From Candidatus Cryptobacteroides choladohippi (lineage in GTDB: Bacteria > Bacteroidota > Bacteroidia > Bacteroidales > UBA932), in the NCBI GenBank assembly GCA_018065985.1, contig JAGHSF010000019.1, forward strand, positions 6,328-70,327: DNA of 64,000 bases, in the 5' to 3' direction. Below, piece after piece: positions 2,394 to 64,000 of the stretch. Both the position numbers and the translations under genes were made by a program. Each line of letters opens with the position of its first letter. The first letter of the stretch is position 1. The notes under the pieces were generated by a model, which saw nothing but the letters and a program-made list of their open reading frames with translations, searched no databases and had not been told where the DNA came from.

Positions 2394-2398
2394 CAATT

Positions 2399-4753: not shown

Positions 4754-4754
4754 A

Positions 4755-5858: not shown

Positions 5859-5864
5859 AGTGTT

Positions 5865-9183: not shown

Positions 9184-9203
9184 ATTTAAGAATGTTTATC
9201 ATT

Positions 9204-9698: not shown

Positions 9699-9717
9699 AT
9701 TGCAAATTCATTCAGAA

Positions 9718-10158: not shown

Positions 10159-10209
10159 AAAAAAACAAGTTGTTTTAAAGTTTCAATTTGAATTGACTAA
10201 ACAAAAGTA

Positions 10210-10809: not shown

Positions 10810-10815
10810 GACTTC

Positions 10816-11968: not shown

Positions 11969-11970
11969 GA

Positions 11971-12939: not shown

Positions 12940-12945
12940 ATTCGT

Positions 12946-15627: not shown

Positions 15628-15633
15628 AATCCG

Positions 15634-17148: not shown

Positions 17149-17150
17149 GA

Positions 17151-17969: not shown

Positions 17970-18025
17970 ATCTATAGTATTTGTTTTCGTTTAATAATAA
18001 GCTTACAAAGTTAGGAAAATTTCTT

Positions 18026-18343
18026 CTAAAGAGACTTCTTTATTTCCACAAGTTGAGCACGAATTTCCTTCAGCGAATCAAGGGCCTTCACATTGTGCTG
18101 CACCTTGCTCCTGTTTGCACCCAGCACACCGGCAGCTCCTTCCAGGGTCATGCCCTTGTCCTTCACCAGAAGATGGATCTGCTTCAGGGTCTCGATGTCG
18201 GCTGCGGAATACAGCCTGTTACCCTTTGCGTTGCGTCGGGGCTTGATGTAGGATTCGAAAGAATTAGACCAGAACCTTACCAGGGAGACGCTCTCCCCTA
18301 TTATCCCGGCCGCTTCACTGATTGAATAGAATAGTTTTTCCAT
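18026..18343 (-). CDS. MerR-family helix-turn-helix transcriptional regulator
   Basis: YSISEAAGIIGESVSLVRFWSNSF ... RRNAKGNRLYSAADIETLKQIHLL is a typical MerR N-terminal HTH. Confidence 0.75.
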   Translation of the reverse strand: MEKLFYSISEAAGIIGESVSLVRFWSNSFESYIKPRRNAKGNRLYSAADIETLKQIHLLVKDKGMTLEGAAGVLGANRSKVQHNVKALDSLKEIRAQLVEIKKSL

Positions 18344-29925: not shown

Positions 29926-29939
29926 GATATATCTGAATA

Positions 29940-31652: not shown

Positions 31653-31669
31653 TGTAGAATCCTCCAAAA

Positions 31670-47291: not shown

Positions 47292-47807
47292 CTAGAGCAT
47301 TACTACGCAGCGGAACTGCATGGCCTCGGGGATGAATGACTCGTCGAGTTCGTAGTCGAAGTCGCTTGCCGTGTAGCAGATAGTAACGCCGCCGATTCCG
47401 ATCTCATAATCGACCTCCTCCGTGTAGAAGTACCAGTCATCGTACCCGTCGCCGTCAACGTCACCAGGACACCATTCCTTAAGTCTGATGTAGGGCATCT
47501 CGATCTGAGTGGCGGTGGACTTGTCGTAGTCATAGACGCGGTACATCTTTATCAGACCGTAGTCAAATGCATCTTCGGTGATTTCGGGAACATCCACGGT
47601 CGCACTGAAGTAGTTGTTATTGTCGACGTCAGAATACTCCCAACTGCTCTCGGGCACATTGATGATGACAGTCTTGATTGTGGCTACACCATCCAGGCCA
47701 TCTCTACCATCACGGCCAGGAAGACCGTCCAAACCGGGTTCACCACGGCAGGATGAGAGGAACAACATAGGGAGGCAAAGAAGTGCTGCCAAAAATAATC
47801 TTTTCAT
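47292..47807 (-). CDS. Small lipoprotein with a short collagen-like G-X-Y stretch
   Basis: The lipobox reads LFLSSC and is followed immediately by GEPGLDGLPGRDGRDGLDG. The rest is an acidic, aromatic-rich domain of unknown function. Confidence 0.55.
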   Translation of the reverse strand: MKRLFLAALLCLPMLFLSSCRGEPGLDGLPGRDGRDGLDGVATIKTVIINVPESSWEYSDVDNNNYFSATVDVPEITEDAFDYGLIKMYRVYDYDKSTATQIEMPYIRLKEWCPGDVDGDGYDDWYFYTEEVDYEIGIGGVTICYTASDFDYELDESFIPEAMQFRCVVML

Positions 47808-49361: not shown

Positions 49362-49388
49362 AGAAGTGTGTGTGTTATTTCGTTTCTG

Positions 49389-49396
49389 CAAATATA
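49389..49396 (-). promoter_or_regulatory. Candidate -7 promoter box (TATATTTG) for the Ser-rich-protein operon
   Basis: The reverse complement of caaatata matches TAnnTTTG. It lies 28-35 nt upstream of ATG 49361. Confidence 0.4.
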
Positions 49397-49735
49397 GCAA
49401 ACATTTTGCCAGAACTTTGCAAGGCAGGGGCCGGACCTGATAAAAAAGTCGCAGTTTGGTCCCGAGAGTAAACGTCATGCATATTTTCAAAAAAGTAAGG
49501 AGCGACATTTTAATTGCTATCCGAAATAAATTTCAGCATTTATGCTTACAATTTATAAGTAATATCCCAAAATTACGCCCCGATTATCATATACAATATA
49601 GTATTTAGGCTTACAGATTCAAACTGGCAATTAATAAAATTTTTGAAAAATCATCAAAATTCCCTATTTTGCGCGGAATTTAGCTTTTTAGGCGAAAATA
49701 CACTGAGTGTATAAATATAACAATCTAATATCATT

Positions 49736-52700
49736 ATGAAAAAAATCAAGTTAGTACTTGTGGTGATCAGCTTGATGCTGTCAGTCCTGGGTAATGCCCA
49801 GAACAGGACAGTGTCCGGCAACGTCATCTCTACAGACGACGGACTGCCTGTGATAGGTGCGTCCGTTTTCGTGAAGGGAACGAAGATTGGAACCGTCACC
49901 GACTTGGATGGTAACTTCACCCTCCCCGGAGTTCCTGCGGATGCGACCACACTCGAGGTCGCTTACCTCAGCATGAAGACAAAGGAAGTTCCAGTGGAAT
50001 CTTTCGTAAAGGTCGCCCTGGAACCCGACTCGGAAATGCTTGCGGAAGTCGTCGTTACCGGTATGCAGTCGATGGACCGCCGACTCTTCACGGGTTCCAC
50101 AGCAAAAATCGATGCTTCAGAAGCAAAACTTGACGGTATGGCCGACGTCAGCCGCTCCCTCGAGGGACGCGTTGCCGGTGTGTCCGTCCAGAACGTTTCC
50201 GGTACATTCGGTACAGCGCCCAAGATCCGTGTACGTGGCGCAACATCAATCTATGGTTCATCAAAGCCCCTCTGGGTTGTCGACGGAGTCATCATGGAAG
50301 ATGTCGTCGACGTGAGTGCAGACCAGCTGTCATCCGGTGATGCAAACACCTTGATCTCATCAGCTATCGCAGGTCTCAACTCAGACGATATCGAGTCATT
50401 CGACATCCTCAAGGACGGTTCGGCCACTTCTATATATGGTGCGCGCGCGATGGCCGGTGTCATCGTCATCACCACCAAGAAAGGCCGTGCCGGTTCAGCA
50501 AAGCTCACCTACACCGGTGAGTTCACAACCAGACTGAAGCCTTCATACACCACTTTCAACATCATGAACTCCCAGGACCAGATGGAAATCTACCAGGAGC
50601 TCCAGCAGAAAGGATACCTCAACTACGCATCGGTTTCCAACGCTTCTGCAAGCGGTGTATTCGGCAAGATGTACGAACTGGTCAACACCTACAACGCAAC
50701 TTCAGGAACATTCGGACTCGCCAACACCCCCGAGGCCAAGGCTGAGTATCTGAGAGCAGCGGAGTACAGGAACACCGACTGGTTCGGCATCCTCTTCTCG
50801 ACAGGCCTCCAGCAGAACCACTCTGTCAGCATTTCCGGAGGTTCCGACAAGGGTACCTACTATGCTTCAGGTTCAATCATGAATGACCCGGGTTGGACCA
50901 AGCAGAGTTCAGTGCAGCGTTACACAGGCAACGTGAACGCCACATACAGGTTCATGGAGAACGTCACCTTCAACTTCATCAGCAACGCATCATACCGTAA
51001 GCAGCGCGCTCCCGGTACCCTGGGACAGGCTATCGACGTCGTTTCCGGTGAGGTCAAGAGAGACTTCGACATCAACCCCTACTCTTACGCGCTCAACACT
51101 TCACGCGCACTCGACCCCAACGAGTACTACAAGAGGAACTACGCTCCGTTCAACATCATGAACGAGCTTGACAACAACTACATTGACGTCAACGTAACCG
51201 ACTTCCGCGTTCAGGGTGAACTCAAGTACAAGCCCATCAACGGACTCGAGTTCAGCGCAATCGGCGCGATGAAGTACACATCAACCGCTCAGGAGCACTA
51301 CATTCTCGAAGGCTCCAACCAGGCTCTCGCATACAAGGAGATGAGTACCACCGTCATCAGAAACGCCAACCCGTTCCTTTACAAAGACCCTGACAAGCCC
51401 TACGAGTACCCTGTCTCAGTGCTGCCCAACGGTGGTATCTACGAGAAGAACGACAACTCCATGCTCGGATACGACTTCCGTGCAACAATGAACTACAGCA
51501 ACACGTTCAAAAGGGACCACATCGTCAACTTCTTTGCAGGTACCGAGATCAACAAGATAGAGCGTCATGGAATATGGTTCCGCGGCTGGGGCATGCAGTA
51601 TGCCATGGGCGAGACCTCGAACTACGACTACCGCGTGTTCAAGGAAGGTTCAGAGCAGAACAGCGACTACTACACAATGAAGAACGCCCACGACCGCAGC
51701 GCCGCCTTCTTCGCAAATGGTACTTACTCATACGCAGGCAAATACATCTTCAACGGAACCATCCGTTACGAAGGTACCAACAAGCTCGGAAAGAGCCGCC
51801 AGGCACGCTGGCTTCCTACATGGAACCTGTCAGCCGCGTGGAACCTGCACGAGGAGAAGTGGATGAAGAACCTGTATCCTACAATCTCACACCTCAGCCT
51901 CAAGGCTTCATACTCACTTACTGCAGACCGCGGTCCTTCGTCAGTAACCAACTCGGCAGTGGTCATCACTGCCAACACACCCTGGAGACCTTTCACCAAC
52001 GTACGTGAGACAGCGCTTGCAATCGAAGACCTTGCCAACACGGACCTTACATACGAGAAGAAGAGAGAGCTCAACCTCGGAATCGAGACCGGCCTCTTCG
52101 ACAACCGCGTCAACATCGCCCTCGACTGGTACAGCCGTAACAACTACGACCTCATCGGTATCATCAACACACAGGGTATTGGCGGACAGGTGCAGAAGAT
52201 GGGTAACATCGCAACGATGAAGTCCGACGGCGTCGAGCTGTCACTCTCAACCACCAACATCAAGGCAAAGGACTTCAGCTGGACAAGCAACTTCATCTAC
52301 TCCCACTCCCACAACGTAGTATCCCAGCTCAAGACAACCATACGCGTGATCGACCTCGTACGAGGCAGCGGTTTCGCACAGGAAGGCTACCCTGTACGTG
52401 GTATCTTCTCAATTCCCTTCGTCGGCCTCAACGACGAGGGTCTTCCCGTGTTCAAGGATCAGGACGGTGGCCAGTCTGTCAGCGGCATCTACTTCCAGGA
52501 GTCAGACCCCGAGAAGCTCAAGTTCCTCGAATATTCAGGAAACGCAGATCCCACCGACGTTGGCTCGTTCGGTAACATCTTCAGCTACAAGGGATTCCGC
52601 CTCAATGTATTCATGACCTACTCATTCGGCAACGTCATCCGTCTGGACCCTGTATTCAGGAACACCTACAATGACCTTGACTCCATGCCCAAGGAGTTTG

Positions 52701-53065
52701 CAAACCGCTGGGCAGTTCCCGGAGACGAGAAGTACACCAGCATCCCTGTTATCGCATCAGTATGGCAGAACAGGCAGGATTCACAGCTCAGCTACGCATA
52801 CAACGCGTACAACTACTCTACCGAACGTATCGCAAAGGGCGACTTCATCCGCATGAAGGAGATCTCTTTCGGATACGACTTCCCCAATGCCTGGGTAGAG
52901 AAACTGCACCTCAACGCACTCTCGCTCAAGCTCCAGGCAACCAACCTCTTCCTTCTCTATGCTGACAAGAAGCTCAACGGACAGGATCCCGAGTTCGCAA
53001 ACGCCGGTGGTGTTGCCGTTCCGCTCCCCAAGCAGTTCACCTTCACAGTCAAGATTGGTCTTTAG
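49736..53065 (+). CDS. SusC/RagA-family TonB-dependent outer-membrane transporter (locus 2)
   Basis: After the signal peptide comes a carboxypeptidase-regulatory-like domain (RTVSGNVISTDDGLPVIGASVFVKGT). The plug contains IRVRGATSIYGSSKPLWVVDG and SIYGARAMAGVIVITTKKG. The C-terminus is FTFTVKIGL. Confidence 0.9.
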   Translation: MKKIKLVLVVISLMLSVLGNAQNRTVSGNVISTDDGLPVIGASVFVKGTKIGTVTDLDGNFTLPGVPADATTLEVAYLSMKTKEVPVESFVKVALEPDSEMLAEVVVTGMQSMDRRLFTGSTAKIDASEAKLDGMADVSRSLEGRVAGVSVQNVSGTFGTAPKIRVRGATSIYGSSKPLWVVDGVIMEDVVDVSADQLSSGDANTLISSAIAGLNSDDIESFDILKDGSATSIYGARAMAGVIVITTKKGRAGSAKLTYTGEFTTRLKPSYTTFNIMNSQDQMEIYQELQQKGYLNYASVSNASASGVFGKMYELVNTYNATSGTFGLANTPEAKAEYLRAAEYRNTDWFGILFSTGLQQNHSVSISGGSDKGTYYASGSIMNDPGWTKQSSVQRYTGNVNATYRFMENVTFNFISNASYRKQRAPGTLGQAIDVVSGEVKRDFDINPYSYALNTSRALDPNEYYKRNYAPFNIMNELDNNYIDVNVTDFRVQGELKYKPINGLEFSAIGAMKYTSTAQEHYILEGSNQALAYKEMSTTVIRNANPFLYKDPDKPYEYPVSVLPNGGIYEKNDNSMLGYDFRATMNYSNTFKRDHIVNFFAGTEINKIERHGIWFRGWGMQYAMGETSNYDYRVFKEGSEQNSDYYTMKNAHDRSAAFFANGTYSYAGKYIFNGTIRYEGTNKLGKSRQARWLPTWNLSAAWNLHEEKWMKNLYPTISHLSLKASYSLTADRGPSSVTNSAVVITANTPWRPFTNVRETALAIEDLANTDLTYEKKRELNLGIETGLFDNRVNIALDWYSRNNYDLIGIINTQGIGGQVQKMGNIATMKSDGVELSLSTTNIKAKDFSWTSNFIYSHSHNVVSQLKTTIRVIDLVRGSGFAQEGYPVRGIFSIPFVGLNDEGLPVFKDQDGGQSVSGIYFQESDPEKLKFLEYSGNADPTDVGSFGNIFSYKGFRLNVFMTYSFGNVIRLDPVFRNTYNDLDSMPKEFANRWAVPGDEKYTSIPVIASVWQNRQDSQLSYAYNAYNYSTERIAKGDFIRMKEISFGYDFPNAWVEKLHLNALSLKLQATNLFLLYADKKLNGQDPEFANAGGVAVPLPKQFTFTVKIGL

Positions 53066-53082
53066 TTCAGGAGGAAAAAGAA

Positions 53083-54756
53083 ATGAAAATGAAGAAACTC
53101 ATATATATGGTAATGGCATCAGCAGTTATGAGCCTTACCGCATGCGACAAGTTCCTCGACGTGATGCCGGACAACAGAACCGAAATCGATTCTGCCGACA
53201 AAATGCGCGCCCTGCTTGTTTCAGCATATCCCGAAACCGACTATATGCTCCTTTCGGAGTTCGTGTCTGATGATGTGGATGACTTCGGCGAGACCAACCC
53301 CAATTCCGACCGCTTCATCCAGCAGGTCTACAACTGGCAGGAAATCACCGAGACCAACAACGAGGACGTTGAAAAGCTCTGGGGAAACACCTACCTCGCA
53401 ATTGCAGTGTCAAACCAGGTAATCGACGGTATTCTCAGCCTTGATGAATCAAGTTCCGACAACAGCAAGAAGGACCTCTTTGCAGTTGCAGCGGCCAACA
53501 ACCTCCTTCCAGAGATGGCAGAAGCGCTCCTGTGCCGCGCCTACAACCACTTCATCCTTGTCAACATGTTCTGCCAGCAGTACAACACCCTGACTTCCGA
53601 CAAGGATCTCGGTATCACTTATATGGACATGCCTGAGCAGGGACTGAACCCCAAATACAAGCGCAGCAGCGTGAAGGAGATCTACGACCATATCGCAGAC
53701 GACCTCGCGCTCGCACTCCCTTACGTGAGCGACGAGTACTTTACCGTGCCCAAGTACCACTTCAACAAGACAGCAGCCTACGCATTTGCAGCAAGGTTCT
53801 ATCTCTACTATGAGAAGTGGGACGAGTCTCTCAGGTATGCGGACCTCTGTCTCGGAAGCGAACCTTCTGCACTCCTCAGGGACTGGGCAGACCAGTCAAA
53901 GATGACCCAGGACGAGGACGTGATCACCGAGCATTTCATCGATGCAGGTGTTAAGTCCAACCTCCTTCTCATGACAGCCTACTCTTGTATGGGTATGGCC
54001 TTCCGCAACTACTTCCTCTACGCCAGATACAGCCACGGCAACTACCAGGCTACCAACGAAGATGCAATCTGCCTTGCCACGATGCTCGGATCAAACAGCG
54101 GAAACTTTTACAAGATGCCCCCCGCAGTGTACAGCGCAACCAACATGGACCGCGTAATCTTCTGGAAACTCCCCTACCTCTTCGAGTACACCGACCCTGT
54201 TGCGCAGATCGGCTACCGCAGAACGGTATACCCTGCATTCACAGGCGACATGGTTCTCCTCGAGAGGGCTGAGGCAAAGATTCTCCTCGGCAAGTACGAC
54301 GAGGCTGCAGCCGACATGAACATCTGGCTCAACAACATTTCGAAGACCAAATGGGATCTCACTCCCGAAAGCATCAACGATCTGTTCAAGAAAATGGAAT
54401 ACTACAAATGGGACAACTCGACTCCCAAGAAGGCGCTGAATCCCAAATTCGACTTCCAGGAGGGAATTCAGGAGAACATGCTCCACTTTGTACTCCTTCT
54501 CAAGAAGGTCGAGGGTCTTGGACTCGGAACCAGATGGTTCGACGTAAAGCGCTACGGAATCGAGATCGTACGCCGCGAGATGGGACCTGACGGCAACCCT
54601 CTCAAGCTTCTTGACGTGCTCAAGGTAGACGACCCCAGGCGTGCACTCCAGATACCTGTCAAGGTTTCCGATGCAGGTTATGAGAAGAATCCCCGTGGAA
54701 AGAGCACGGACTCAGAATATGTGCAGAAGGTTGAAAGAGAACCCGTTAACTTCTAG
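53083..54756 (+). CDS. SusD/RagB-family nutrient-binding lipoprotein (locus 2)
   Basis: The lipobox MSLTAC is followed by DKFLDVMPDNRTEI, typical of SusD-like N-termini. The gene starts 18 nt after susC. Confidence 0.85.
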   Translation: MKMKKLIYMVMASAVMSLTACDKFLDVMPDNRTEIDSADKMRALLVSAYPETDYMLLSEFVSDDVDDFGETNPNSDRFIQQVYNWQEITETNNEDVEKLWGNTYLAIAVSNQVIDGILSLDESSSDNSKKDLFAVAAANNLLPEMAEALLCRAYNHFILVNMFCQQYNTLTSDKDLGITYMDMPEQGLNPKYKRSSVKEIYDHIADDLALALPYVSDEYFTVPKYHFNKTAAYAFAARFYLYYEKWDESLRYADLCLGSEPSALLRDWADQSKMTQDEDVITEHFIDAGVKSNLLLMTAYSCMGMAFRNYFLYARYSHGNYQATNEDAICLATMLGSNSGNFYKMPPAVYSATNMDRVIFWKLPYLFEYTDPVAQIGYRRTVYPAFTGDMVLLERAEAKILLGKYDEAAADMNIWLNNISKTKWDLTPESINDLFKKMEYYKWDNSTPKKALNPKFDFQEGIQENMLHFVLLLKKVEGLGLGTRWFDVKRYGIEIVRREMGPDGNPLKLLDVLKVDDPRRALQIPVKVSDAGYEKNPRGKSTDSEYVQKVEREPVNF

Positions 54757-54761
54757 ACGCC

Positions 54762-55652
54762 ATGAAAAAAGTAATATATATACTGTTAGCTTTTATCGCT
54801 GCTTCTGTCATGAATTCATGCCAGGAAGAGCCTCTCAAGAAGGACAGCGTCATAACGGTTGACAAGATTCAGCAGAACGACTTCGACAAGTGGCTGACAG
54901 CCAATTTTGTCAATCCCTACAACATCGACTTCGTATATCGTTTCTCGATGAACGAGTCTGATATGAATTACTACACCATCCCTCCCAAGTACGACCTTGC
55001 GGTGAAGATGGCACACCTCGTGAAATATCTCTGCGTCGACACATATGACGAAGTCGCAGGCATCAGCTTCACAAGGGCATACTTCCCCAAGATGTTCTTC
55101 CTGATCGGAGAATGGGAGTACAGGAACAATGGAACAATCATTCTCGGTACTGCGGAAGGCGGAAGGAAGATTCTCCTTTCAGGAATCAACTACCTCGACG
55201 AGTTTGTAGATGATGCCGAGGAACTCAACTACTGGTACATCAAGACCATCCACCATGAGTTCACCCACATCCTCAACCAGACCAGGCCCTACCCTTCTGA
55301 GTTCAAGCAGGTTACCGGCAACGGATATGTGGCAGACAACTGGAGCAAGGAGCCTTACAACTCAGAATACCTCCAGAATGGTTTCTTCACAGCATATTCT
55401 CAGGAAAATGACGCCGAGGACTTTGCAGAGATCATGTCAGAGTACGTGACCCACACTGCCGAGTACTGGGATTCTACCGTAGCCAAGGCAGGCGATGGTG
55501 CCATCTTCATCAACCGCAAGCTCGACATCGTACGTGCTTATATGGAAGACACCTGGGGCATCGATATGGACGACCTCAGAGCATGCATCCTCAGAAGGCA
55601 GAACGATGTGGTCAAAGGGAAAGTCGATCTTGACGATGTTTCACTTAACTAA
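54762..55652 (+). CDS. Substrate-import-associated zinc metallohydrolase lipoprotein (HExxH)
   Basis: The lipobox reads VMNSC. The HExxH site occurs in YWYIKTIHHEFTHILNQ, and a downstream acidic motif reads ENDAEDFAEIMSEY. Its position directly after SusC/SusD is typical of this family. Confidence 0.7.
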   Translation: MKKVIYILLAFIAASVMNSCQEEPLKKDSVITVDKIQQNDFDKWLTANFVNPYNIDFVYRFSMNESDMNYYTIPPKYDLAVKMAHLVKYLCVDTYDEVAGISFTRAYFPKMFFLIGEWEYRNNGTIILGTAEGGRKILLSGINYLDEFVDDAEELNYWYIKTIHHEFTHILNQTRPYPSEFKQVTGNGYVADNWSKEPYNSEYLQNGFFTAYSQENDAEDFAEIMSEYVTHTAEYWDSTVAKAGDGAIFINRKLDIVRAYMEDTWGIDMDDLRACILRRQNDVVKGKVDLDDVSLN

Positions 55653-55664
55653 ACAGGCAGAGAT

Positions 55665-56996
55665 ATGAAAACAAGAAGAATAATACTTATCGTAGCTGCG
55701 GCTATGAGCCTTTTTGCAGCGCAGTCCTGCCTCAAGGATCAGAAGATGGTATTCGACAAGCCATACTCTGAGAGAATGTCCGACTACCTCAAAAACGTGA
55801 CCGAAGTACTGGAAAGCAACGAATCCGGATGGATCATGAGAACATATCCCGGAACCGGCCAGGCCTACGGAGGATACGCCTTCTATGTGAATTTCAAAGA
55901 CGGCAAGGTGACCGCCAGGTGCGAGATCGATCCCGAGTACGAGGAGACCAGCTATTACAAGCTCACCAACGACAACGGTCCCGTTCTCTCGTTCGACCTC
56001 CACAATGAGATTCTCCACCTGTTCTCGACACCTTCAAGCGGCGCATACCAGGCAATGGGAGGAGACTTCGAGTTCACAATCAAGGAATACTCAAACGAGA
56101 AGATCGGCCTTGTAGGCAAGCGTTCAGGCAACCACTGTGACCTCTATCCTTTCCCTGTCGGCATAGCTCCTGAGAAGTACCTCCAGGACGTCTATGACAT
56201 GAGCGAGAACGTGCTCGCTGCAACTGTTGACGGTGTGATCGGAGGCAAGGAAGTCACCGGAGAGGTGGACCTCGATTCAAGGCGCATCACATTCACCTAT
56301 TATGATCCCGAGGAAGCCGCACTCATTGCAGCCGGCGATCCTGCAAACGAGGAGGAGGAAGACGGAGACGACGAGGAGGGTTATGTGACCAAGGAGATGC
56401 CTTTCATGTACACTCCTACAGGTATCAGAGCCTACGAGCCTGTCAAGATTGCAGGAAACACTCTTGACGATCTCATGTACCATTCGGAGAACAACGTATT
56501 CACAAACGGTGTGATTGTACTTCAGGGACACGTTCCCGCCGATTACACGCAATACGCAGATTTCGAAGGAACCTATACCCTCAAGTACAACTCCACGGCA
56601 ACGGTAACCCTCACTCCCAACGAGGATAAGACCGGTTACATCATGTCAGGAATCAACAAGAACTACACCATCTTCCTCAAGTACAACAAGGCAAAAGGCC
56701 GCCTGATGTGGAATGTACAGCTTGTCGGTTCTGATGGAGACAACCTCGTATGGCTCGCAGCATGGGACCTCAATGGAGGAGGGAACCTTAATTACTGGGA
56801 CGAAATGGCAGGTACCGAGATCCACTGGGTTGAGGAACGCAACCAGTTCGAGTTCGAATCCAACCTGAACTGGGAAGGTCATGCCACCGACTCATTCATT
56901 CTTTGGGAAACAGACAGCGACGGAAACTCAATGGGCCAGTACACCGGTTGGGGCAGCAGCCAGATTCCTTATCTGAAGTATCTCAAACGTAAATAA
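55665..56996 (+). CDS. DUF4302-like lipoprotein
   Basis: The lipobox reads AAQSC. The N-terminal pattern SERMSDYLKNVTEVLESNESGWIMRTYPG...GGYAFYVNFKDGKVTA matches my memory of DUF4302 proteins that accompany the metallohydrolase. This is not verified by HMM. Confidence 0.5.
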   Translation: MKTRRIILIVAAAMSLFAAQSCLKDQKMVFDKPYSERMSDYLKNVTEVLESNESGWIMRTYPGTGQAYGGYAFYVNFKDGKVTARCEIDPEYEETSYYKLTNDNGPVLSFDLHNEILHLFSTPSSGAYQAMGGDFEFTIKEYSNEKIGLVGKRSGNHCDLYPFPVGIAPEKYLQDVYDMSENVLAATVDGVIGGKEVTGEVDLDSRRITFTYYDPEEAALIAAGDPANEEEEDGDDEEGYVTKEMPFMYTPTGIRAYEPVKIAGNTLDDLMYHSENNVFTNGVIVLQGHVPADYTQYADFEGTYTLKYNSTATVTLTPNEDKTGYIMSGINKNYTIFLKYNKAKGRLMWNVQLVGSDGDNLVWLAAWDLNGGGNLNYWDEMAGTEIHWVEERNQFEFESNLNWEGHATDSFILWETDSDGNSMGQYTGWGSSQIPYLKYLKRK

Positions 56997-57008
56997 TACC
57001 GAGAAGAG

Positions 57009-59252
57009 ATGAAAAAGATCATAAACATAATGACGATAGCACTCGGAATCCTGGCATTCTCGTCATGCGGGCAGAAAGGGCTTGCTCCCATCGAGAGAAA
57101 GGTCAAGGTTGTCGAGAGCAATCTCGCCATCCCTGCAAAGGGAGGCGAGGCAAAGGTCAAGCTTGAGACCAAAGGTCAGCTCAAGGTCAGCGTCGACGCT
57201 GCATGGTGCACCTATGCCATCAATGGAAACGAAGTCACCTTTACCGCAACCGAAAACAGCAAGCTGACTTCAAGGTATGCCAAGGCCGTGTTCACAGTAG
57301 AGGACGAGAACGCCACAGTGACCATCCACCAATACGGATACATCACAAGCGACTTTTCTCCTTCAGACATCACTGCAATATCTGACGGTGAAGTATTCAA
57401 CTTCCCTTACAAGTACGATGAGAAACTCGTGGCCAGCACAGATGCTGAATGGATAACCCTTTCAGTAACCGAGGACAACCTCAGAGTCGATATTGCCGAG
57501 AATACCACGAAGGCAACGGCCGACAACAAGAGTCGCAAGGCTGAGATTGCATGGCAACTCGGTGCAGACAAGGGCATGATCAAGGTAGAGCAGTATAACG
57601 TAGACTACATGCAGCCCGATGCAAACTGGACCGTAAGCTATGACGGATACAAGGTTTACGAAGGTGACGGTGAGAAGTACGAGCACATCAGCAACGAGGT
57701 GGCAGACCCTGCCGTCTCAGGAATGTATTACATCACCTACTTCTCAAAGGATGATTTCAGCACAAGCGGACTTAATCTTGGCAACTACATCCTGTCAACC
57801 GTTCCAAGCATCAAAGATGACGTCGACGAACTTATCGAATACTATGCAAGCTACGGATATGAACTGACATACTCTGATTTGCTTTACAAGGATTCTGACT
57901 ATGAGATATTCGCAAAGTTTGAGCCAGGCGATTACTACGCATGCGTCATCGGCTTTGACGAGAACCTCGCTCCCACCGGTCGCTATTCAGTATCAGAGTT
58001 CACAAAGAAAGACGGAAGCGAGCCCAGCGCCTATGACAACTGGCTCGGTGACTGGAAGTGCCCGCACGGCAATTCCACCACCAGCTTCGACACCTGGACA
58101 TTCACCGTAAAGGAGAAGGGTTACACCTACTGGGTAAGCGGTATCGAAGGATACACCGACCTCAAGATCGAGGTCGAGTATGACGAGAACACCGAGGGCA
58201 TCATAGCCCGCGCCCAGGAAGGGATTGGAACCATGACCATAGGAAGCAAGGGAGAATGCTCAATGGGATTCTACGGAGCAACTCTCGCAGGAAATCTCTG
58301 GACTCCCGGCGCCAACCCGTACGCAATCTTCACAGCCACAATAGATGGTGACAGCGCTCAGCTGGTTCCTTCAACTCTCAGCACAGAGAGCGGCGAGGTT
58401 CAGCCTGAGATCGGCGCTTACATAGGCAAGACTTCTGATGGGAAATTCACCCTTCCCAAGTCATTTAATGACGCTACCAGAACCAACGTCGTCCTTACAA
58501 GAGGCGGTAGCGATGACGAAGGCGATGATGATGACGAAGACGACGAAGAGCATGGCACAGGCTCCGAGAGTTTCAACAAGTTCATAGGCTCTTGGGAAGT
58601 GACCCCTGCAAATTCCGAGTTCGATCCCTGGATCACCAGACTCGTGGAGGTTACACCCGATGCGGAGATTGCCGCATACGACTGGCAGGGATGGTCCCAA
58701 GACTGGGTAAAACCCGCCACTGTAACATACAAGGACAGCAAGATCACTTTCAAGGGAGGCTCGGGAGTTCCTCTCGCAGAGAATGTTATCATGGACGATC
58801 CTGGCGATCCGTTCACAGTCTATTACCTGGGATCCTGCATCATCGACGGTGAGTCTTATGTCATCCCCTCCGAAGATAAGATGTACGATGCTTGCGAAGG
58901 CGCAATCGACAAAGACGGCAACATAGTCCTCACCGGTCTTGACATCAAACTCATCGACGGAAATACATACAAAATCTCCGAGTACGGCATCGCGGCCATC
59001 AGTGCGGACGGGGAGACCATCTACACATACAAGAACGAGGCAGGTGAGTTCCCTGTTACCATGAAGAAGGCAAGTCGCAGCAGCAGCAGCAGTTCTGTGA
59101 AGGCATTCGGGCGCACCTGGAACCTCTCACTCGAAAACGCAGTCAAGGTGGAGGCTTCGCACGTTCTCAGAATGCAAGAGGAGGAGCCTGTCATGATGAA
59201 GGCAATCCCTGCCAAGTCAGCACCTTCACGTCCGAAATTTATCATAAAATAA
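57009..59252 (+). CDS. Large surface lipoprotein with two N-terminal BACON-like domains, an acidic linker and uncharacterised C-terminal modules
   Basis: The lipobox reads AFSSC. The BACON-like segments are AKGGEAKVKLETKGQLKVSVDAAWCTYAING...RYAKAVFTV and ASTDAEWITLSV...KSRKAEIAW. The linker reads GGSDDEGDDDDEDDEEHG, and poly-Ser (SRSSSSSS) lies near the C-terminus. Confidence 0.6.
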   Translation: MKKIINIMTIALGILAFSSCGQKGLAPIERKVKVVESNLAIPAKGGEAKVKLETKGQLKVSVDAAWCTYAINGNEVTFTATENSKLTSRYAKAVFTVEDENATVTIHQYGYITSDFSPSDITAISDGEVFNFPYKYDEKLVASTDAEWITLSVTEDNLRVDIAENTTKATADNKSRKAEIAWQLGADKGMIKVEQYNVDYMQPDANWTVSYDGYKVYEGDGEKYEHISNEVADPAVSGMYYITYFSKDDFSTSGLNLGNYILSTVPSIKDDVDELIEYYASYGYELTYSDLLYKDSDYEIFAKFEPGDYYACVIGFDENLAPTGRYSVSEFTKKDGSEPSAYDNWLGDWKCPHGNSTTSFDTWTFTVKEKGYTYWVSGIEGYTDLKIEVEYDENTEGIIARAQEGIGTMTIGSKGECSMGFYGATLAGNLWTPGANPYAIFTATIDGDSAQLVPSTLSTESGEVQPEIGAYIGKTSDGKFTLPKSFNDATRTNVVLTRGGSDDEGDDDDEDDEEHGTGSESFNKFIGSWEVTPANSEFDPWITRLVEVTPDAEIAAYDWQGWSQDWVKPATVTYKDSKITFKGGSGVPLAENVIMDDPGDPFTVYYLGSCIIDGESYVIPSEDKMYDACEGAIDKDGNIVLTGLDIKLIDGNTYKISEYGIAAISADGETIYTYKNEAGEFPVTMKKASRSSSSSSVKAFGRTWNLSLENAVKVEASHVLRMQEEEPVMMKAIPAKSAPSRPKFIIK

Positions 59253-59269
59253 GTTAAACAACCCATACC

Positions 59270-61876
59270 ATGAAAAAGACATTGTTATTCGCATTCGTTG
59301 CCGGAGTTCTTGCTCTGGCAGGATGCTCAAAGGACTCCGACCTCTCAAAGAAGGTCGACAACCTCGACAAGAGAGTATCAACGCTCGAGGAGCAGGTTAA
59401 GGAACTGAACGAGCAGACAGTTCCCGGTATCCGCAATCTCGTTGCCGCAATTCAGGGCAATGTATACTGCACAAGCGTAGTCGACAATGGAAACGGCTAC
59501 ACCATCAAGTTCTCAAACGGAACACAGGCTACCATCACCAATGGTAAGGATGGAAAGGATGGCAAAGACGGTAAGGACGGAAAGGACGGCGACAAGGGCG
59601 ATACTCCCGTCATCAGCTGCGCTGAGTTCGAGGGCGAGTTCTACTGGACTTGCGACGGCGAATTCCTGACCGACGCCGAGGGAAACAAGATCCCCGTTCA
59701 CAAGAAACTTCCCACCTTCATGATCATCGAAGGCAAGTGGAATGTATCTTATGACGACGGCGAGACCTGGCAGGTAGTTCCCAAGATGGGTGAAAGCGAA
59801 CAGATTCCCATCTCTATCGTGGACAGCGAGGAGAGCGTTACCTTCTATATCGGCGACAAGTCTTACGTCATCAAGAAAGAGGTTCCCTTCTACATGGTAT
59901 TCGAACAGCGCACCGACCTCGGTGTGGTTGAAGGCGAGACCGCTTCATTCCCCTACACCATCATGGGTGCAAAGGAGGACGACGAAGTCGAGGTTGACAT
60001 TCTCAATGTGATCGGTACCTGGGATGCAGAGGTTGAAGCAACCGACGCCACATCAGGAAACGTCAAGGTCACCAACAACGGTGGCAATGCAAAGGTGTTC
60101 GTATACGCTGCCAACGGCCGCGGCAAGACCGACATCAAGTCTCTCGTATTCGAGGGCGGTGTACTTACCGCAACCGTATCCGCATCTTCAGTAAAAGCTG
60201 AAGGTGGCGAGGTTGAGCTCGAAATCACCACAAACATGAACTACGAGATCAGCATCGATGCTGACTGGCTCGCAGTTGCTCCCGAGACCAAGGCAACCCA
60301 CACCGACAACATCACTCTCGTTGCCGAGGCAAACACTACCGGCAATGCGCGCACCGCTACCGTAAGCATAGTCGGCGAGGGTATCAGCCAGGAGTTCGAG
60401 ATTCTCCAGGAGTCTGGCGAGGCACCTGATTATGAAATCGACATCACCGTTGAGAACATAACCTACAACTCGGCTGACGTAACATTCACACCCAACGACA
60501 ACAATGTATATTACATTCCCGCAGTCGAGACTGCAGGATATGTAGAGCAGTTCTCAAGCGATGATGAACTGATTGCAGCCGACCTTGAATACTGGGAGGA
60601 TTATTACGAGACTTACAAAAGTGAAATTGAGGATGTATATGGTATTACCACATTCAAGGAATACATTCTCGAATGTGTTGCTAAAACAGGAGAATACGCT
60701 AATACATTTGGTAATAAGAAGGCAAACAGCAAATATTACGCATACGCATTCTGCATCGACGAGGATCTCAATGCAGTATCCGGCGTGTTCAAGCAGGACT
60801 TCACAACAGAAGAGATGTCTGGCGATGGCTCATACGAGGATTATCTTGGAGAATGGGAACTCGGAACAAATCTCCTTACCATATCTGAAAAGGAAAATGG
60901 CAAGACTTATAATGTGACCGGTTTCTCCAACATGACCAACTCTACCTTCAATTATAGCATTGCAGCCGTTGAGGCTTCATTTGAGAATGGCTTGTTCGTT
61001 CTCAAAGAGCAGGATTTCGAAGAGACAGGCTACTACACAACTTATGGAAACCTCAACATCGCTCTGACTGGCATCAATGCAAGTGGAACGCCGTCTTATC
61101 CTTGGTCTACCGGAACCCCTTCAGTCCTGATCTATGGTAACTATAACAAGGCAGGCAACGTCATCGACGTTACCAGTGATTTTGCAAAAATAGTATTCTC
61201 TTGGATCATTCAGGAGGGTAGCAACAAAGGAAGAGGCAATTACAATCTTAATGCTGCAACAATCACATCATCAATGACAAGGCCAAAGGAGATGCCTGAG
61301 GAACTCTTTGGAACCTATGTATGTCCCGAAGCTACAGAGGGCTTTACAGAAAACCCTGATACATATACGAACTGGACTTGGGTTATAAAGAAATCAGGTA
61401 CCGGTGTCGCAATCGAAGGTTATGACGCATCACTTGATGAAATATGTGAAGCTAACAATCTGAAAAAATGCGTTCCTGTTCTGACATGGGATGAGTCAGC
61501 AAGCACACTCACTCTGGCTGACAAGACAGAGACCGGTCTTTCTGTTAGTGGAACATCCGTTGTATGGAGAGGAATCCTTGGAGGATACTATCAAGATACC
61601 GTATGGGATGTTGACCTTGAAGCAGGCACAATCTCACTTGCATGTGACGGATTCCAGGCACGCGCTACAAACGCATCCTCATATTTCAAGGCCCCTCTTG
61701 TATTCACAAAGACGGATTCTGCAACAGCATCAGTCAAGTCTACAGGAAACGGTCATGCCAAGGATGCATCAATAGAGGCTGAAACAATTGCAGTTCCGGC
61801 TTATCAGAAGATGGTTCCCGCAAAGATGGGAGAGAATGCTATCAAGAGCACGCGCAGCCTTTCTATCACAAAGTAA
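59270..61876 (+). CDS. Large surface lipoprotein: coiled-coil plus collagen-like (GKD)n N-terminal module (DUF4988/PL29-N-like), BACON-like domain and low-GC C-terminal modules
   Basis: The lipobox reads ALAGC. A heptad region reads VDNLDKRVSTLEEQVKELNEQ, followed by NGKDGKDGKDGKDGKDGDKGD. A BACON-like segment reads AEGGEVELEITTNMNYEISIDADWLAV...NARTATVSI. I see no catalytic motif. Confidence 0.55.
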   Translation: MKKTLLFAFVAGVLALAGCSKDSDLSKKVDNLDKRVSTLEEQVKELNEQTVPGIRNLVAAIQGNVYCTSVVDNGNGYTIKFSNGTQATITNGKDGKDGKDGKDGKDGDKGDTPVISCAEFEGEFYWTCDGEFLTDAEGNKIPVHKKLPTFMIIEGKWNVSYDDGETWQVVPKMGESEQIPISIVDSEESVTFYIGDKSYVIKKEVPFYMVFEQRTDLGVVEGETASFPYTIMGAKEDDEVEVDILNVIGTWDAEVEATDATSGNVKVTNNGGNAKVFVYAANGRGKTDIKSLVFEGGVLTATVSASSVKAEGGEVELEITTNMNYEISIDADWLAVAPETKATHTDNITLVAEANTTGNARTATVSIVGEGISQEFEILQESGEAPDYEIDITVENITYNSADVTFTPNDNNVYYIPAVETAGYVEQFSSDDELIAADLEYWEDYYETYKSEIEDVYGITTFKEYILECVAKTGEYANTFGNKKANSKYYAYAFCIDEDLNAVSGVFKQDFTTEEMSGDGSYEDYLGEWELGTNLLTISEKENGKTYNVTGFSNMTNSTFNYSIAAVEASFENGLFVLKEQDFEETGYYTTYGNLNIALTGINASGTPSYPWSTGTPSVLIYGNYNKAGNVIDVTSDFAKIVFSWIIQEGSNKGRGNYNLNAATITSSMTRPKEMPEELFGTYVCPEATEGFTENPDTYTNWTWVIKKSGTGVAIEGYDASLDEICEANNLKKCVPVLTWDESASTLTLADKTETGLSVSGTSVVWRGILGGYYQDTVWDVDLEAGTISLACDGFQARATNASSYFKAPLVFTKTDSATASVKSTGNGHAKDASIEAETIAVPAYQKMVPAKMGENAIKSTRSLSITK

Positions 61877-61898
61877 TAAACACTTTGATATTTTAATA

Positions 61899-61933
61899 AC
61901 AAGCCGGCTGAAAGAATCAGCCGGCTTGTTTGT
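61899..61933 (+). terminator. Rho-independent terminator ending Sus-like locus 2
   Basis: acaagccggctga-aagaa-tcagccggcttgt forms a 13-bp perfect stem followed by ttgtc. Confidence 0.8.
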
Positions 61934-62012
61934 CATATGACCGACCTGTTCTATGAAGTCAGAAATGAGACTTTACAAAAAAAATACTATTTTTGTTTAA
62001 AATAAATTTAGT

Positions 62013-64000
62013 ATGATCGCGAAAACTGCGAAAATAGGATTGATTGCCATAGGGGCGGCGATGTTGCTTGCCTCCTGCGCAAAGGAAAGCGGATTCAAGG
62101 AACAGACATATACCGGTTCAACCACGGAAAAGACTGACAAGCCGGCAACCCCTGCCGATGACCTTGAGAGAATGAGGTTCATCCCGGGAGAGGCCGTAGT
62201 GCTGTTCTCCGAGGAGATGACGGACAAGATAGAGAATAACGCCATCGATCTCGAAGGACTGCGCAAGGAGCTTGGAATAAGCAACATGGAAAGACTGTTC
62301 CCCTACGCAGGCGAGTTTGAGAAAAGGACCAGGGCCGAAGGCCTGCACAGGTTCTATCTTGTCGACTTTGACGCAGCGGTCAGCCTCAGCAAGGCCGAAA
62401 GGGCTTTCCAGTCCATGGGAGGCGTGGAATGCTTCGAGCGCCAGCACAAGGTCACCGACCTCACGGTCAATGACACCAACTTCTCTAAGCTCTGGGCGCT
62501 CTCGAGCGCTGCCAGCCCAAAGACAAACATACACGTGGAGCCTGTGTGGGCATACACAATGGGCGATCCCAACGTCATAGTCAATGTGGTCGACACAGGC
62601 ATAGACCTGAACCACGAAGACCTCAGCTGGAACTGCAGCAAGGAGAACAACTTCAACTTTGTGAGGAACAACGAAATTATTACTGCCGGTGAGCACGGAA
62701 CACACGTAGCCGGAACCATTGCCGGCGTCGGCAACAATGCCAAAGGTGTGATCGGAATAGCCGGTGGTGACTATGAGGCCGGCAAAAGGGGCGTGACCTT
62801 GCTCAGTTCCCAGGTATTCTCAGACAACGGGTCGGCAAGAAGTTTTGCAAACGCCATCAAATGGGGCGCCGACCATGGCGCAGTCATCAGCCAGAACAGC
62901 TGGGGCTACGACTACGACTACGACAAGAACGGCAAACTGGAAGGCCAGGAGCTTCAGGATGCTCTTGCAGCCAAGGCAGACAATGCACTCAAGGCCGCTG
63001 TAGACTATTTCATCAAATATGCCGGATGCGACTCTGATGGCAACCAGGCCGAAGGGGCACCCATGAAGGGCGGTCTCGTGGTCTTTGCTGCAGGAAACGA
63101 CGGCATTGCCAACGGAGCACCCGCCAACTATGAGCCTGTTCTGGCCGTAGGAGCCGTCAAAAAGACGGGATTGCTCGACAGCTACTCGAACTATGGCAAA
63201 TGGGTGGACATGTGCGCCCCCGGAACCGATATCTACAGCACCATTCCCGGCAACAGGTACGCCAGCCTCTCCGGCACATCGATGGCCTGTCCCCACGTTT
63301 CCGGAGCAGCCGCCCTGCTGCTTTCATACTTCCAGAAGTATGGCCTGACATGCGATGACCTTCAGGACATGCTGCTCAAGGGAGCAAATCCTGACATTGT
63401 AGGCTATTCCGGAAAGGCATGCGGACCGTACCTCGATGTCAACTCCTCATTCCAGTACGGAATCGAGAAATACATACGCAAGTACAACAACGACCCCATC
63501 ATTGAACCTGACTATGTGGGAGATCTGATCTTCCGCCACTGGGAAGAGGCCAAGATTCCCTTCCACATATATGATCCCGACGGTGACAGCGTCGAGGTCA
63601 CAGCAAAGTTCGACGGTCGCGGAAGCCTTGAAAAGGACCCGGTCAAGGAAGATACATACATCATCTCCGTACTCTGCCAGCTGGTCAGCAGCACAGAGCC
63701 CCAGACCTTCACAATCACGGCAAAGGACATCTACAAGGCTGCAGCCGTAAAGGAATTCAGCTATACCGTCATCCCCAACAGGGATCCTGTGGCTAACAGG
63801 GGCCTCGACAACCTTCTTCTGAACATGGGCGGCAACGTCCCGGAAATCGACCTCACGGGACTGTTCTCCGATCCGGATGAAGAGCCGTTGAAGACCATTG
63901 TGACCACATCGCCTTCAGGAATCATCGATGCAGGTATCAAAGACAACAGACTCAGCCTCTCCCTAACCAACACCGGACTTACCACCGTATCTGTAGTGGC
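62013..64000 (+). CDS. S8-family (subtilisin-like) serine peptidase lipoprotein, paralogue of 35324..37579; C-terminus beyond the right window edge
   Basis: This is my own translation; the ORF is open at the window end and so is absent from the track. It starts MIAKTAKIGLIAIGAAMLLASC (lipobox). The triad contexts are VVDTGIDLNHEDL, EHGTHVAGTIAG and GTSMACPHVSGAAALLL. It shares WGADHGA(L/V)ISQNSWGY, AAVDYFIK.AGCD and KGGLVVFAAGN blocks with the first S8 gene. Confidence 0.88.
   Translation, partial: MIAKTAKIGLIAIGAAMLLASCAKESGFKEQTYTGSTTEKTDKPATPADDLERMRFIPGEAVVLFSEEMTDKIENNAIDLEGLRKELGISNMERLFPYAGEFEKRTRAEGLHRFYLVDFDAAVSLSKAERAFQSMGGVECFERQHKVTDLTVNDTNFSKLWALSSAASPKTNIHVEPVWAYTMGDPNVIVNVVDTGIDLNHEDLSWNCSKENNFNFVRNNEIITAGEHGTHVAGTIAGVGNNAKGVIGIAGGDYEAGKRGVTLLSSQVFSDNGSARSFANAIKWGADHGAVISQNSWGYDYDYDKNGKLEGQELQDALAAKADNALKAAVDYFIKYAGCDSDGNQAEGAPMKGGLVVFAAGNDGIANGAPANYEPVLAVGAVKKTGLLDSYSNYGKWVDMCAPGTDIYSTIPGNRYASLSGTSMACPHVSGAAALLLSYFQKYGLTCDDLQDMLLKGANPDIVGYSGKACGPYLDVNSSFQYGIEKYIRKYNNDPIIEPDYVGDLIFRHWEEAKIPFHIYDPDGDSVEVTAKFDGRGSLEKDPVKEDTYIISVLCQLVSSTEPQTFTITAKDIYKAAAVKEFSYTVIPNRDPVANRGLDNLLLNMGGNVPEIDLTGLFSDPDEEPLKTIVTTSPSGIIDAGIKDNRLSLSLTNTGLTTVSVV

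Follow-up and report, generated by a model that had tools for sequence, protein, structure and literature searches.

We analysed a stretch of 64,000 nucleotides (nt) from Candidatus Cryptobacteroides choladohippi (NCBI GenBank assembly GCA_018065985.1, contig JAGHSF010000019.1, positions 6,328 to 70,327 of the forward strand), hereafter the window, whose last part, from position 49736 onward, holds a SusC/SusD transporter pair followed by a zinc-metallopeptidase-like (zincin) lipoprotein, a DUF4302 lipoprotein, two large lipoproteins and a subtilase of family S8. Judged from sequence, this locus would couple proteolysis at the cell surface to the import of peptides or glycopeptides through SusCD and most likely harvests protein and not polysaccharide, a reading to which we give an even chance of being right. 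The locus is a member of a catalogued class, the SusC/SusD loci with a TIGR04549 zincin; by every test applied, it has no glycoside hydrolase (GH) or polysaccharide lyase (PL) domain, and the linkage of an endopeptidase to the cassette, found in at least four arrangements, is conserved and recurrent. Its features are as follows (window coordinates; aa, amino acids):

49736–53065, plus strand: SusC, TonB-dependent transporter of the SusC/RagA family, 1109 aa
53083–54756, plus strand: SusD-like lipoprotein, 557 aa, lipobox LTAC followed by DKFLD
54762–55652, plus strand: zincin-type HExxH lipoprotein (Peptidase_Mx1/TIGR04549), 296 aa, lipobox NSC followed by QEEP
55665–56996, plus strand: lipoprotein with DUF4302 and DUF4987, 443 aa, lipobox QSC followed by LKDQ
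57009–59252, plus strand: 747-aa lipoprotein with one Pfam BACON match (PF13004)
59270–61876, plus strand: 868-aa lipoprotein with DUF4988 head, BACON, middle domain and beta-barrel module
61898–61930, plus strand: hairpin with a perfect 14-bp GC-rich stem and a 5-nt loop, between the 868-aa and S8 genes
62013–64000, plus strand: 5' part of the S8 subtilase, 662 residues to the window edge, lipobox LASC followed by AKES

The first six genes are the closely spaced, plus-strand set that a preliminary description of this DNA had outlined, with open reading frames (ORFs) where it had placed them, gaps of 17, 5, 12, 12 and 17 nt in order, and the motif IHHEFTHILNQ present in the HExxH lipoprotein. 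Read directly from the sequence, all six proteins other than SusC, the subtilase included, have a lipobox cysteine. An acidic stretch behind this cysteine is the surface-export signal of Bacteroidetes lipoproteins. In most of the five proteins between SusC and the subtilase, acidic residues lie within about five positions of the cysteine (CDKFLD, CQEEP, CLKDQ, CSKDSD), the 747-aa protein with CGQKG being the exception, and this fits the surface-export signal that is the subject of PMC5080379.

This order of genes is found again in dozens of genomes independent of one another, and the arrangement is therefore not due to chance. A scan with a zincin profile across one genome per GTDB species gave 332 loci; in all 80 of the best loci that were analysed, the order is SusC, SusD, zincin and DUF4302, and in about 75 of the loci analysed, separately retrieved ones included, a BACON lipoprotein comes next after this four-gene core. 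The hosts are Bacteroidales of the horse, ruminant and human gut, and the taxa comprise Candidatus Cryptobacteroides, 'Alistipes sp. CAG:435/514', Segatella copri, Prevotella, Muribaculaceae and Bacteroides muris. The same four-gene order is also found, at a zincin identity of about 30 %, in Pedobacter, Sphingobacterium, Tenacibaculum, Dyadobacter and Chitinophagaceae; DUF4302 is always the fourth gene, in Pedobacter, Sphingobacterium and Tenacibaculum too. Across the 80 loci, identity to the window is 61–93 % for SusC, the most conserved gene of the set, 54–89 % for the zincin, 40–88 % for SusD, which is always the second gene, 28–77 % for the DUF4302 protein and 20–73 % for the distal lipoproteins, so that the genes rank SusC > zincin > SusD > DUF4302 > distal lipoproteins in conservation. 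This gradient fits a common imported product combined with the lineage-specific capture of different substrates.

SusC identities of this size, across families from Prevotellaceae to Cryptobacteroides, are unusually high for the transporters of polysaccharide utilisation loci (PULs). Together with the conservation of the zincin, they would reflect one invariant ligand if the system imported a specific molecule that is not primarily a nutrient, either a signalling or antagonistic protein, as ButCD does with BfUbb, or a small hydrophobic ligand held in lipocalin-like barrels. We regard this as very improbable. A high conservation is described for ButCD, too, whose import substrate is a folded protein (PMC11467351), and the four or five beta-barrel modules of the locus, with no ligand assigned to them, would suit such a role; the proposal is, however, pure inference without a ligand candidate, and the strong variation of the distal lipoproteins and attached proteases between clades speaks against a single invariant ligand. 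The architecture of ButCD also differs, its metalloprotease lying upstream of SusC and no DUF4302 being mentioned (PMC11467351).

The full set with both large lipoproteins is confined to the sub-clade nearest to the window, about 20 loci. On contigs with close homologues (loci L001 and L003–L009), the six genes recur in unchanged order, followed, where the contig continues, by an S8 gene and then a gene of the PorV/PorQ family. Beforehand, the synteny of the S8 gene had been set as a test that could refute the protein-foraging reading, and the gene does follow the set in 18 of the 19 sub-clade loci in which the region is visible; L017 is without it, and in L010 and L021, it is a more distant, longer paralogue. 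Both the S8 and the PorV/Q-family gene stand behind the set in L001, L004, L006–L009, L013–L016, L020, L026, L033 and L039. Other clades have, independently, different S8 and PorV/Q pairs behind other lipoproteins (L024, L041, L057 and L077) or, in L023 and L040, the S8 gene without PorV/Q. In L093, from a Mangrovibacterium metagenome-assembled genome (positions 1–8000), the protease pair lies upstream, the order being S8 (C-terminal part), PorV/Q-like, SusC, SusD and zincin, and in L078, the place of the subtilase is taken by a protease of another family. Features of single relatives that matter here and below are these (coordinates of each locus):

L001, 15000–15908: PorV/PorQ-family gene
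L008, 18260–19177: PorV/PorQ-family gene
L006, 17857–18765: PorV/PorQ-family gene
L078 (Prevotellaceae RUG12152), 14069–18299: C10 streptopain-like protease with I69 propeptide, then GH127, behind a SusC–SusD–zincin–DUF4302–BACON core
L143 (Bacteroides xylanisolvens XB1A), 2809–15592: ECF sigma (extracytoplasmic function sigma factor), FecR anti-sigma, SusC with STN, SusD, zincin, DUF4302/DUF4987, BACON lipoprotein and two Fib_succ_major lipoproteins

The part of the subtilase inside the window matches Peptidase_S8_N (PF16361, 61 bits) and Peptidase_S8 (PF00082, 148.2 bits) and shows, in alignment, the Asp/His/Ser triad motifs VVDTGID, HGTHVAG and GTSMACPH. The gene had been recognised correctly, its start being 62013, 83 nt past the hairpin, and not 62014. 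Its description as a lipoprotein was right about the lipobox and incomplete otherwise: the relatives also have a putative C-terminal domain typical of type IX secretion systems (T9SS) and a PorV/PorQ-family partner, and the protein is thus probably not simply a lipoprotein. These relatives are 755–774 aa long and end in putative T9SS type A C-terminal domains; the precomputed PF18962 match is unmarked in L001 and weak in L004 and L008, and TIGR04183 gives 18.1 bits on an S8 relative, against a cut-off of 23. Directly after the S8 gene, they have a PorV/PorQ-family gene of about 305 aa; in L006 and L008, the two genes share 4 nt. The NCBIfam model for PorV/PorQ (NF033709, cut-off 90 bits) scores 98.1 in L001, 121.6 in L008 and 76.4 in L006; Pfam has no confident match on these genes, with a faint OMP_b-brl in L008 only. 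The barrel is apparently dedicated to a single T9SS cargo.

The targeting signals of this S8 family are unusual in their own right. A lipobox cysteine, at about position 20–32, is combined with a T9SS-type end (...APGxY...IxKK), as if the protein were targeted twice; such a cysteine is not typical of T9SS cargo. The set consists of the window gene (62013–62090) and those of L001, L004, L006–L009, L011, L013–L016, L020, L026, L033 and L039, the longer paralogue in L010 is an exception, and in most family members, acidic residues follow the cysteine.

The hairpin in front of the S8 gene had been called a strong terminator. The structure itself is confirmed, with a fold z of -6.9 for the region 61877–62012; it has no T-run, and a consensus terminator scan therefore did not list it. 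All six relatives tested have a strong GC-rich hairpin at the same position, with unrelated sequences, and among the hairpin-bearing loci compared (L001, L004, L006, L008, L009 and the window), a T-run is found in some and not in the window. The element is probably a terminator or attenuator, and its conservation indicates a conserved transcriptional boundary or attenuator.

The second predicted catalyst is the zincin, whose gene begins 5 nt past SusD. The protein matches PF15890 (Peptidase_Mx1) with 272.9 bits and TIGR04549, 'substrate import-associated zinc metallohydrolase lipoprotein', with 330.3 bits (cut-off 75). HEFTH comprises residues 165–169, and across 50 homologues there is no variation at H165, E166, H169, Y212, E219, D220 and E223. 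In the PDB, its sequence relatives are 9urd_A (3e-71) and 4l7a_A (4e-62), with no further ones even by profile search; 4L7A is BACCAC_01431, and 9urd comes from the Bacteroides ovatus/xylanisolvens group and not from an organism of the iron capture system (ICS) considered below. The AlphaFold2 model (predicted local distance difference test, pLDDT, 79.5) matches 4l7a with a Foldseek E of 1e-18; the next structural match is anthrax lethal factor of family M34 (E 0.03, probability 0.84, template-modelling score, TM, 0.26), and PPEP-1, of the same family, is matched faintly. The segment EDFAE presumably recalls the 'E-F/Y-FAE' segment with the third zinc ligand of M34 enzymes, which we take as a lead only. 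Taken together, sequence and model make the protein look like an intact gluzincin-type metallopeptidase, its activity being a prediction. We found no published function for the TIGR04549/PF15890 family, and the literature on DUF4302, DUF4987/4988, Peptidase_Mx1 and TIGR04549 yielded incidental mentions in transcriptome tables only.

The remaining lipoproteins look like binding proteins. The product of the fourth gene consists of DUF4302 (PF14135, 173.8 bits, residues 28–272) and DUF4987 (PF16377, 63 bits, residues 282–414), has no PDB relative by sequence and is presumed to be a non-catalytic surface binding or adaptor protein. For the 747-aa protein, with 30 full-length homologues and an AlphaFold2 model of mean pLDDT 80.5, the model shows two immunoglobulin (Ig)/BACON-like domains (about 30–196), a mixed alpha/beta middle domain (207–333) and two beta-barrels (345–498 and 525–687) with an acidic linker between them. 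It shows no recognisable catalytic fold, whole-chain Foldseek against the PDB giving tandem Ig-like matches only, and by PDB profile search the protein matches nothing but the BACON domains in a GH16 and in a GH5; the protein is presumed to capture substrate. Matches to GH107 in the whole-chain Foldseek search were discarded, as they run through the Ig-like domains only, with a TM of about 0.12.

The 868-aa protein begins with a DUF4988 head (PF16378, 98.6 bits, residues 26–170) in which residues 1–170 combine a coiled coil and a collagen-like GKDGKDG stretch, and it carries BACON/BACON_2 at 304–380, a BACON-like domain also being its sole PDB profile match. By hhalign, its residues 303–760 align with residues 39–578 of the 747-aa protein at a probability of 99.3 % (E 4.7e-20), and the two proteins are therefore paralogues that share a module of BACON, middle domain and barrel. 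The barrel starts resemble the start of DUF4987 weakly (hhalign E 2.6e-4 to 0.09, probability at most 42 %), some relatives of the 868-aa protein have precomputed DUF4987 matches, and the four barrels of the large lipoproteins may thus be DUF4987-like. An exhaustive profile search gave 176 representatives at E <=1e-30 and 2119 at <=1e-10, many of them through BACON repeats; for the 868-aa protein, a single-protein pattern search of GTDB genomes found no close relatives, and these were reached via metagenome contigs. As a separate observation, the collagen-like stretch, GKDGKDGKDGKDGDKGD, lies at about residues 92–110 behind the coiled-coil segment of the DUF4988 head, and Pfam Collagen (PF01391) matches at the same place in many relatives.

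In databases, proteins related to the 868-aa one often bear the label 'PL29 family lyase N-terminal domain-containing protein'. A PL29 lyase was considered and rejected: NF058554 (BT3328) reaches 57.6 bits where the cut-off is 1100, its match being limited to model positions 1–165 of 840, and with the remainder of the protein homologous to the 747-aa protein, there is no room for a lyase domain. Pfam and NCBIfam name no family of carbohydrate-active enzymes (CAZymes) in the seven genes or in the three nearest upstream genes (47820–49508, 47292–47807 and 46287–47288). The absence of GH, PL and carbohydrate esterase domains from the six-gene set, claimed in the preliminary description, is thus borne out by these two libraries, and that of catalytic GH or PL domains from the large lipoproteins by Pfam, NCBIfam, PDB profiles and the whole-chain Foldseek search of the 747-aa model; the CAZyme search as a whole consisted of Pfam, NCBIfam, PDB profiles and the whole-chain fold search, dbCAN not being among them.

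The transporter genes and their surroundings gave no sign of a dedicated sensor. SusC matches TIGR04056 with 643.8 bits (cut-off 368.25) and the TIGR04057 signature with 52.6 bits (cut-off 46.2) and has an N-terminal CarbopepD_reg_2 (PF13715) and a Plug domain (PF07715, 50.9 bits); SusD matches SusD-like_3 (PF14322) with 119.1 bits. As described earlier, SusC has no Pfam match to the STN domain (PF07660), and the nearby ORFs encode no hybrid two-component system, ECF sigma or anti-sigma. The B. xylanisolvens locus has an ECF sigma, an anti-sigma and an STN domain on SusC, and that of S. copri has an OmpR-type two-component pair; regulation thus differs by lineage, and the clade of the window is without a recognisable regulator. 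An alignment of 12 upstream regions showed no conserved operator or promoter upstream of SusC.

These data bear on a rival in which the locus forages on glycoproteins or glycans with its CAZymes encoded elsewhere: the BACON lipoproteins would bind a glycan or a heavily glycosylated protein (plant hydroxyproline-rich glycoproteins, arabinogalactan proteins and mucin being examples), the proteases would do no more than open up this substrate, and the imported nutrient would be a glycan or glycopeptide, degraded to completion in the periplasm by glycosidases of other loci. The host-glycan PULs of Bacteroides are typically controlled by ECF sigma, anti-sigma and STN; such control in the B. xylanisolvens version favours this rival, as do the BACON domains present in every fifth-position lipoprotein. 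The flanks of the relatives add to it: L001 has a GH101 upstream and a GH10 downstream, L008 a GH10 downstream, and in L078, L075 and L066 (Prevotella), a GH127, of the beta-L-arabinofuranosidase family, directly follows the cassette on the same strand. These genes keep a glycoprotein substrate in play; they vary, however, between close relatives and form no consistent flank, the GH127 of L004 lying on the opposite strand and L006 having no such gene. The window locus, moreover, has no CAZyme in or next to it, and the conserved catalysts are of peptidase type, which leads us to consider glycan foraging unlikely, though the best supported of the alternatives. A conserved linkage to GH10, considered separately, was dropped, as it concerns only two loci whose GH10 genes are 34 % identical to each other.

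A further rival comes from the ICS. According to PMC5429918, icsC, icsD and icsE of Capnocytophaga canimorsus correspond to Riemerella B739_0103 (SusC/RagA), B739_0102 (RagB) and B739_0101 ('substrate import-associated zinc metallohydrolase'), the Riemerella cluster being up by log2 3.1–3.8 under iron limitation; the ICS of C. canimorsus (PUL3) is reported to take iron from transferrin (PMC5429918, PMC4576167). A SusC–SusD–zincin core is present in the window and would be of the ICS type if IcsE belongs to the zincin family, as the annotation of B739_0101 indicates. By analogy, the locus could take up iron or another metal after removing it, at the surface, from a carrier protein. The induction under iron limitation of Riemerella equivalents that include the zinc metallohydrolase (PMC5429918) speaks for this, and so does the phylum-wide order SusC–SusD–zincin–DUF4302, given which the ICS plausibly shares the core. 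We nevertheless think it improbable. The homologous locus of B. thetaiotaomicron, BT3958–3961, is lowered in expression, like many other PULs, when iron is limiting (PMC10434189); the hosts here are commensals of the herbivore and human gut, where transferrin offers no obvious niche; neither an icsA-like gene nor a recognisable iron-regulatory element was seen, and no operator is conserved upstream; and an added subtilase or C10 protease suits bulk proteolysis better. A search for the ICS loci of Capnocytophaga and Riemerella with an AT-biased DNA pattern for HHEF[AT]HIL matched Pedobacter, Sphingobacterium and others, and neither of those two genera.

Returning to protein harvest by surface proteolysis and SusCD import, the steps would be these. 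Anchored to the cell surface through its lipid, through docking of its C-terminal domain on a cognate PorV/Q-like barrel or through both, the subtilase would cleave a protein or glycoprotein outside the cell into large pieces; these would be captured and passed on by the DUF4302/DUF4987 protein and the two large paralogues; the zincin would trim them to oligopeptides or glycopeptides fitting the SusCD 'pedal bin'; and SusC would import the trimmed products with TonB energy. We infer the surface location, the order of action, the imported product and the docking of the S8 protein on a PorV/Q-like barrel, the last of these following a hypothesis on cognate PorV-like barrels (PMC10202324).

Several observations weigh against this reading. 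The related system reported as characterised, the ICS, reportedly acquires iron and not amino acids. BACON domains are usual in carbohydrate-related proteins, and GH101, GH10 or GH127 genes stand near some relatives. We found no demonstration of peptidase activity for Mx1/TIGR04549 proteins in the literature, and the structural link of the zincin to M34 is weak. In many cassettes, such as those of Segatella copri, Bacteroides muris and B. xylanisolvens, no additional protease lies within 10 kb; the hairpin, being conserved, points to the S8 gene as a transcription unit of its own; and the C-terminus and PorV/Q partner of the window's own subtilase lie past position 64000 and are deduced from relatives 74–82 % identical. 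The preference for protein, peptide or glycoprotein over polysaccharide that was expressed in the preliminary description thus keeps its direction, qualified by the reportedly different role of the related ICS and the GH flanks of some relatives.

More speculatively, the cassette may be a dedicated 'protein utilisation locus', a modular machine for proteolysis and import at the surface, with a T9SS subtilase docked on its own PorV/Q-like barrel, a conserved SusCD–zincin core and variable capture lipoproteins made of Ig/BACON domains and the undescribed module of middle domain and barrel; by exchanging the endopeptidase (S8 or C10) and the capture proteins, lineages would redirect it, and it would form a major, so far unstudied route of protein nitrogen in the Bacteroidales of the herbivore and human gut, including Segatella copri and Cryptobacteroides. 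We hold this wider proposal as tentative and lean slightly toward doubting it.

Elsewhere in the window, the following features deserve mention:

35324–37579, plus strand: second S8 subtilase, 751 aa, with PF00082 (151.8 bits), PF16361 (73.8 bits) and a lipobox
37576–38388, plus strand: PorV/PorQ-like ORF, 270 aa, overlapping the second S8 gene by 4 nt
31670–34939, minus strand: second SusC, TIGR04056 764.7 bits
29940–31787, minus strand: second SusD, PF07980/PF14322
29002–29925, minus strand: 307-aa lipoprotein with no family named, next to the second SusD
47820–49508, minus strand: 562-aa ORF without significant Pfam, NCBIfam or PDB sequence match
47292–47807, minus strand: 171-aa ORF without significant Pfam or NCBIfam match
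46287–47288: 333-aa ORF, GFO/IDH/MocA oxidoreductase
45229–46290, plus strand: 353-aa ORF without Pfam match and with a below-threshold NCBIfam lipoprotein match (E 0.091)

The second subtilase is 39 % identical to the first over the full length (BLASTP E 4e-123), and its T9SS C-terminal domain is near the threshold (TIGR04183 21 bits, cut-off 23); its 270-aa neighbour scores 37.6 bits with NF033709 (E 1.9e-9), below the cut-off of 90. This pair is divergent from the second SusC/SusD set (29002–34939), and a SusCD next to an S8 subtilase and a PorV/Q-like barrel thus probably occurs twice within 64 kb. The ORFs upstream of the main locus, beyond the last of which (353 aa) lies an F-type ATPase operon, have no counterpart beside any of the related loci and are therefore not part of the system. 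The sizes of the 171-aa and 333-aa ORFs are suggestive of a hidden sigma/anti-sigma pair; neither has sigma or FecR domains, one is the oxidoreductase, and the idea was rejected. Unconnected with all this, an 800-aa ORF on the minus strand (20344–22746) joins an LptF/LptG permease (6–450) to Formyl_trans_N and Formyl_trans_C (482–787) of methionyl-tRNA formyltransferase type, which may be a gene fusion, a missed stop or a frameshift.

Gut Bacteroidota have been studied almost wholly as glycan degraders, and protein-nitrogen uptake is known mainly from RagAB of an oral pathogen. Against this background stands a cassette that is strongly conserved, phylum-wide and shared by gut taxa of high abundance (Segatella copri, Prevotella, Cryptobacteroides, Muribaculaceae and Bacteroides) with catalysts of peptidase type only. 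If it does import peptides, it would be a widespread system of protein or glycoprotein foraging in the rumen, hindgut and human colon and would account for a class of 'PULs without CAZymes', while a T9SS-type subtilase with a cognate PorV/Q-like barrel in an uptake locus would exemplify dedicated cargo docking, so far a hypothesis for PorQ–PorZ-like pairs. Should it be ICS-like instead, the mechanism of iron capture would extend from pathogens to commensals. The cluster type is already catalogued (TIGR04549), and peptide import by SusCD–metallopeptidase loci has been proposed. What appears to be new is an eight-gene variant with two paralogous capture lipoproteins of an undescribed middle-domain and barrel module, a subtilase and a PorV/Q-family barrel, together with evidence, from comparison, of one conserved core to which lineages have each joined endopeptidases of their own. 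We regard it as a sound and testable lead on how abundant gut Bacteroidales forage on protein, and not as a new category of system.

Among known systems, the nearest in gene content are the SusC/SusD loci with TIGR04549/PF15890, of which the third gene of the window, directly after SusD and followed by DUF4302, is a clear member. The B. xylanisolvens representative, whose zincin is 95 % identical to PDB 9urd, has the same five-gene core and likewise no CAZyme in its locus. The Bacteroides version carries ECF sigma, anti-sigma, STN and Fib_succ_major lipoproteins, whereas the clade of the window is without the regulator and STN and adds the two large paralogous lipoproteins, the S8 subtilase and the PorV/Q-family barrel. 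The locus type had at first been taken as uncharacterised, which does not hold: TIGR04549 is named for its association with SusC/SusD, and the ICS and a proposal of peptide import were already in the literature. The ICS (C. canimorsus PUL3; Riemerella anatipestifer B739_0098–0103) is reportedly Sus-like as well, with a third gene of the same zincin family by annotation, several lipoproteins without known function after it, no CAZyme and a protein, transferrin, to act upon. It differs in its reported role, the acquisition of iron in pathogens, in its control by iron limitation and in having seven genes, icsA among them, and it is not known to have a subtilase or PorV/Q partner.

Classical PULs (Sus; BT4240–4250) share with the window the SusC/SusD pair and BACON/Ig surface lipoproteins in operons, while the glycoside hydrolases and dedicated sensor that they carry were not found at the window locus; the BT4240–4250 locus for mucin O-glycoproteins pairs an M60-like peptidase, BT4244, with SusCD (PMC11992087). 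ButCD of Bacteroides fragilis, a CAZyme-free SusCD beside a zinc metalloprotease that imports the protein BfUbb, has been proposed as a nutrient system for proteins or peptides, and SusCD loci with a peptidase after susD have been named as candidate peptide importers (PMC11467351). It resembles the window in its high conservation, its lack of CAZymes and the adjacent zinc metalloprotease; it differs in that this enzyme (ZnMc) stands upstream of SusC and in that no DUF4302, BACON or S8 is mentioned. For the subtilase, the attachment pairs PorQ–PorZ and PorV–PorU offer a parallel, cognate PorV-like barrels having been hypothesised to retain the C-terminal domains of their cargo, as PorQ does for PorZ (PMC10202324). 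Like these pairs, the S8 relatives have a C-terminal domain, putatively of type A, and a presumed cognate barrel; unlike them, the barrel is dedicated to one hydrolase in a nutrient-import locus, and the cargo carries a lipobox cysteine.

RagAB of Porphyromonas gingivalis is reportedly a peptide importer of the SusCD type, and it is fed by surface proteases delivered by the T9SS, the gingipains. RagAB itself is a bare SusC/SusD pair without zincin, DUF4302 or BACON, and the gingipains are cysteine proteases encoded elsewhere. With these differences kept in mind, RagAB together with the T9SS gingipains, a TonB-dependent oligopeptide importer fed by surface proteases, would by analogy be the closest functional counterpart of the locus described here.

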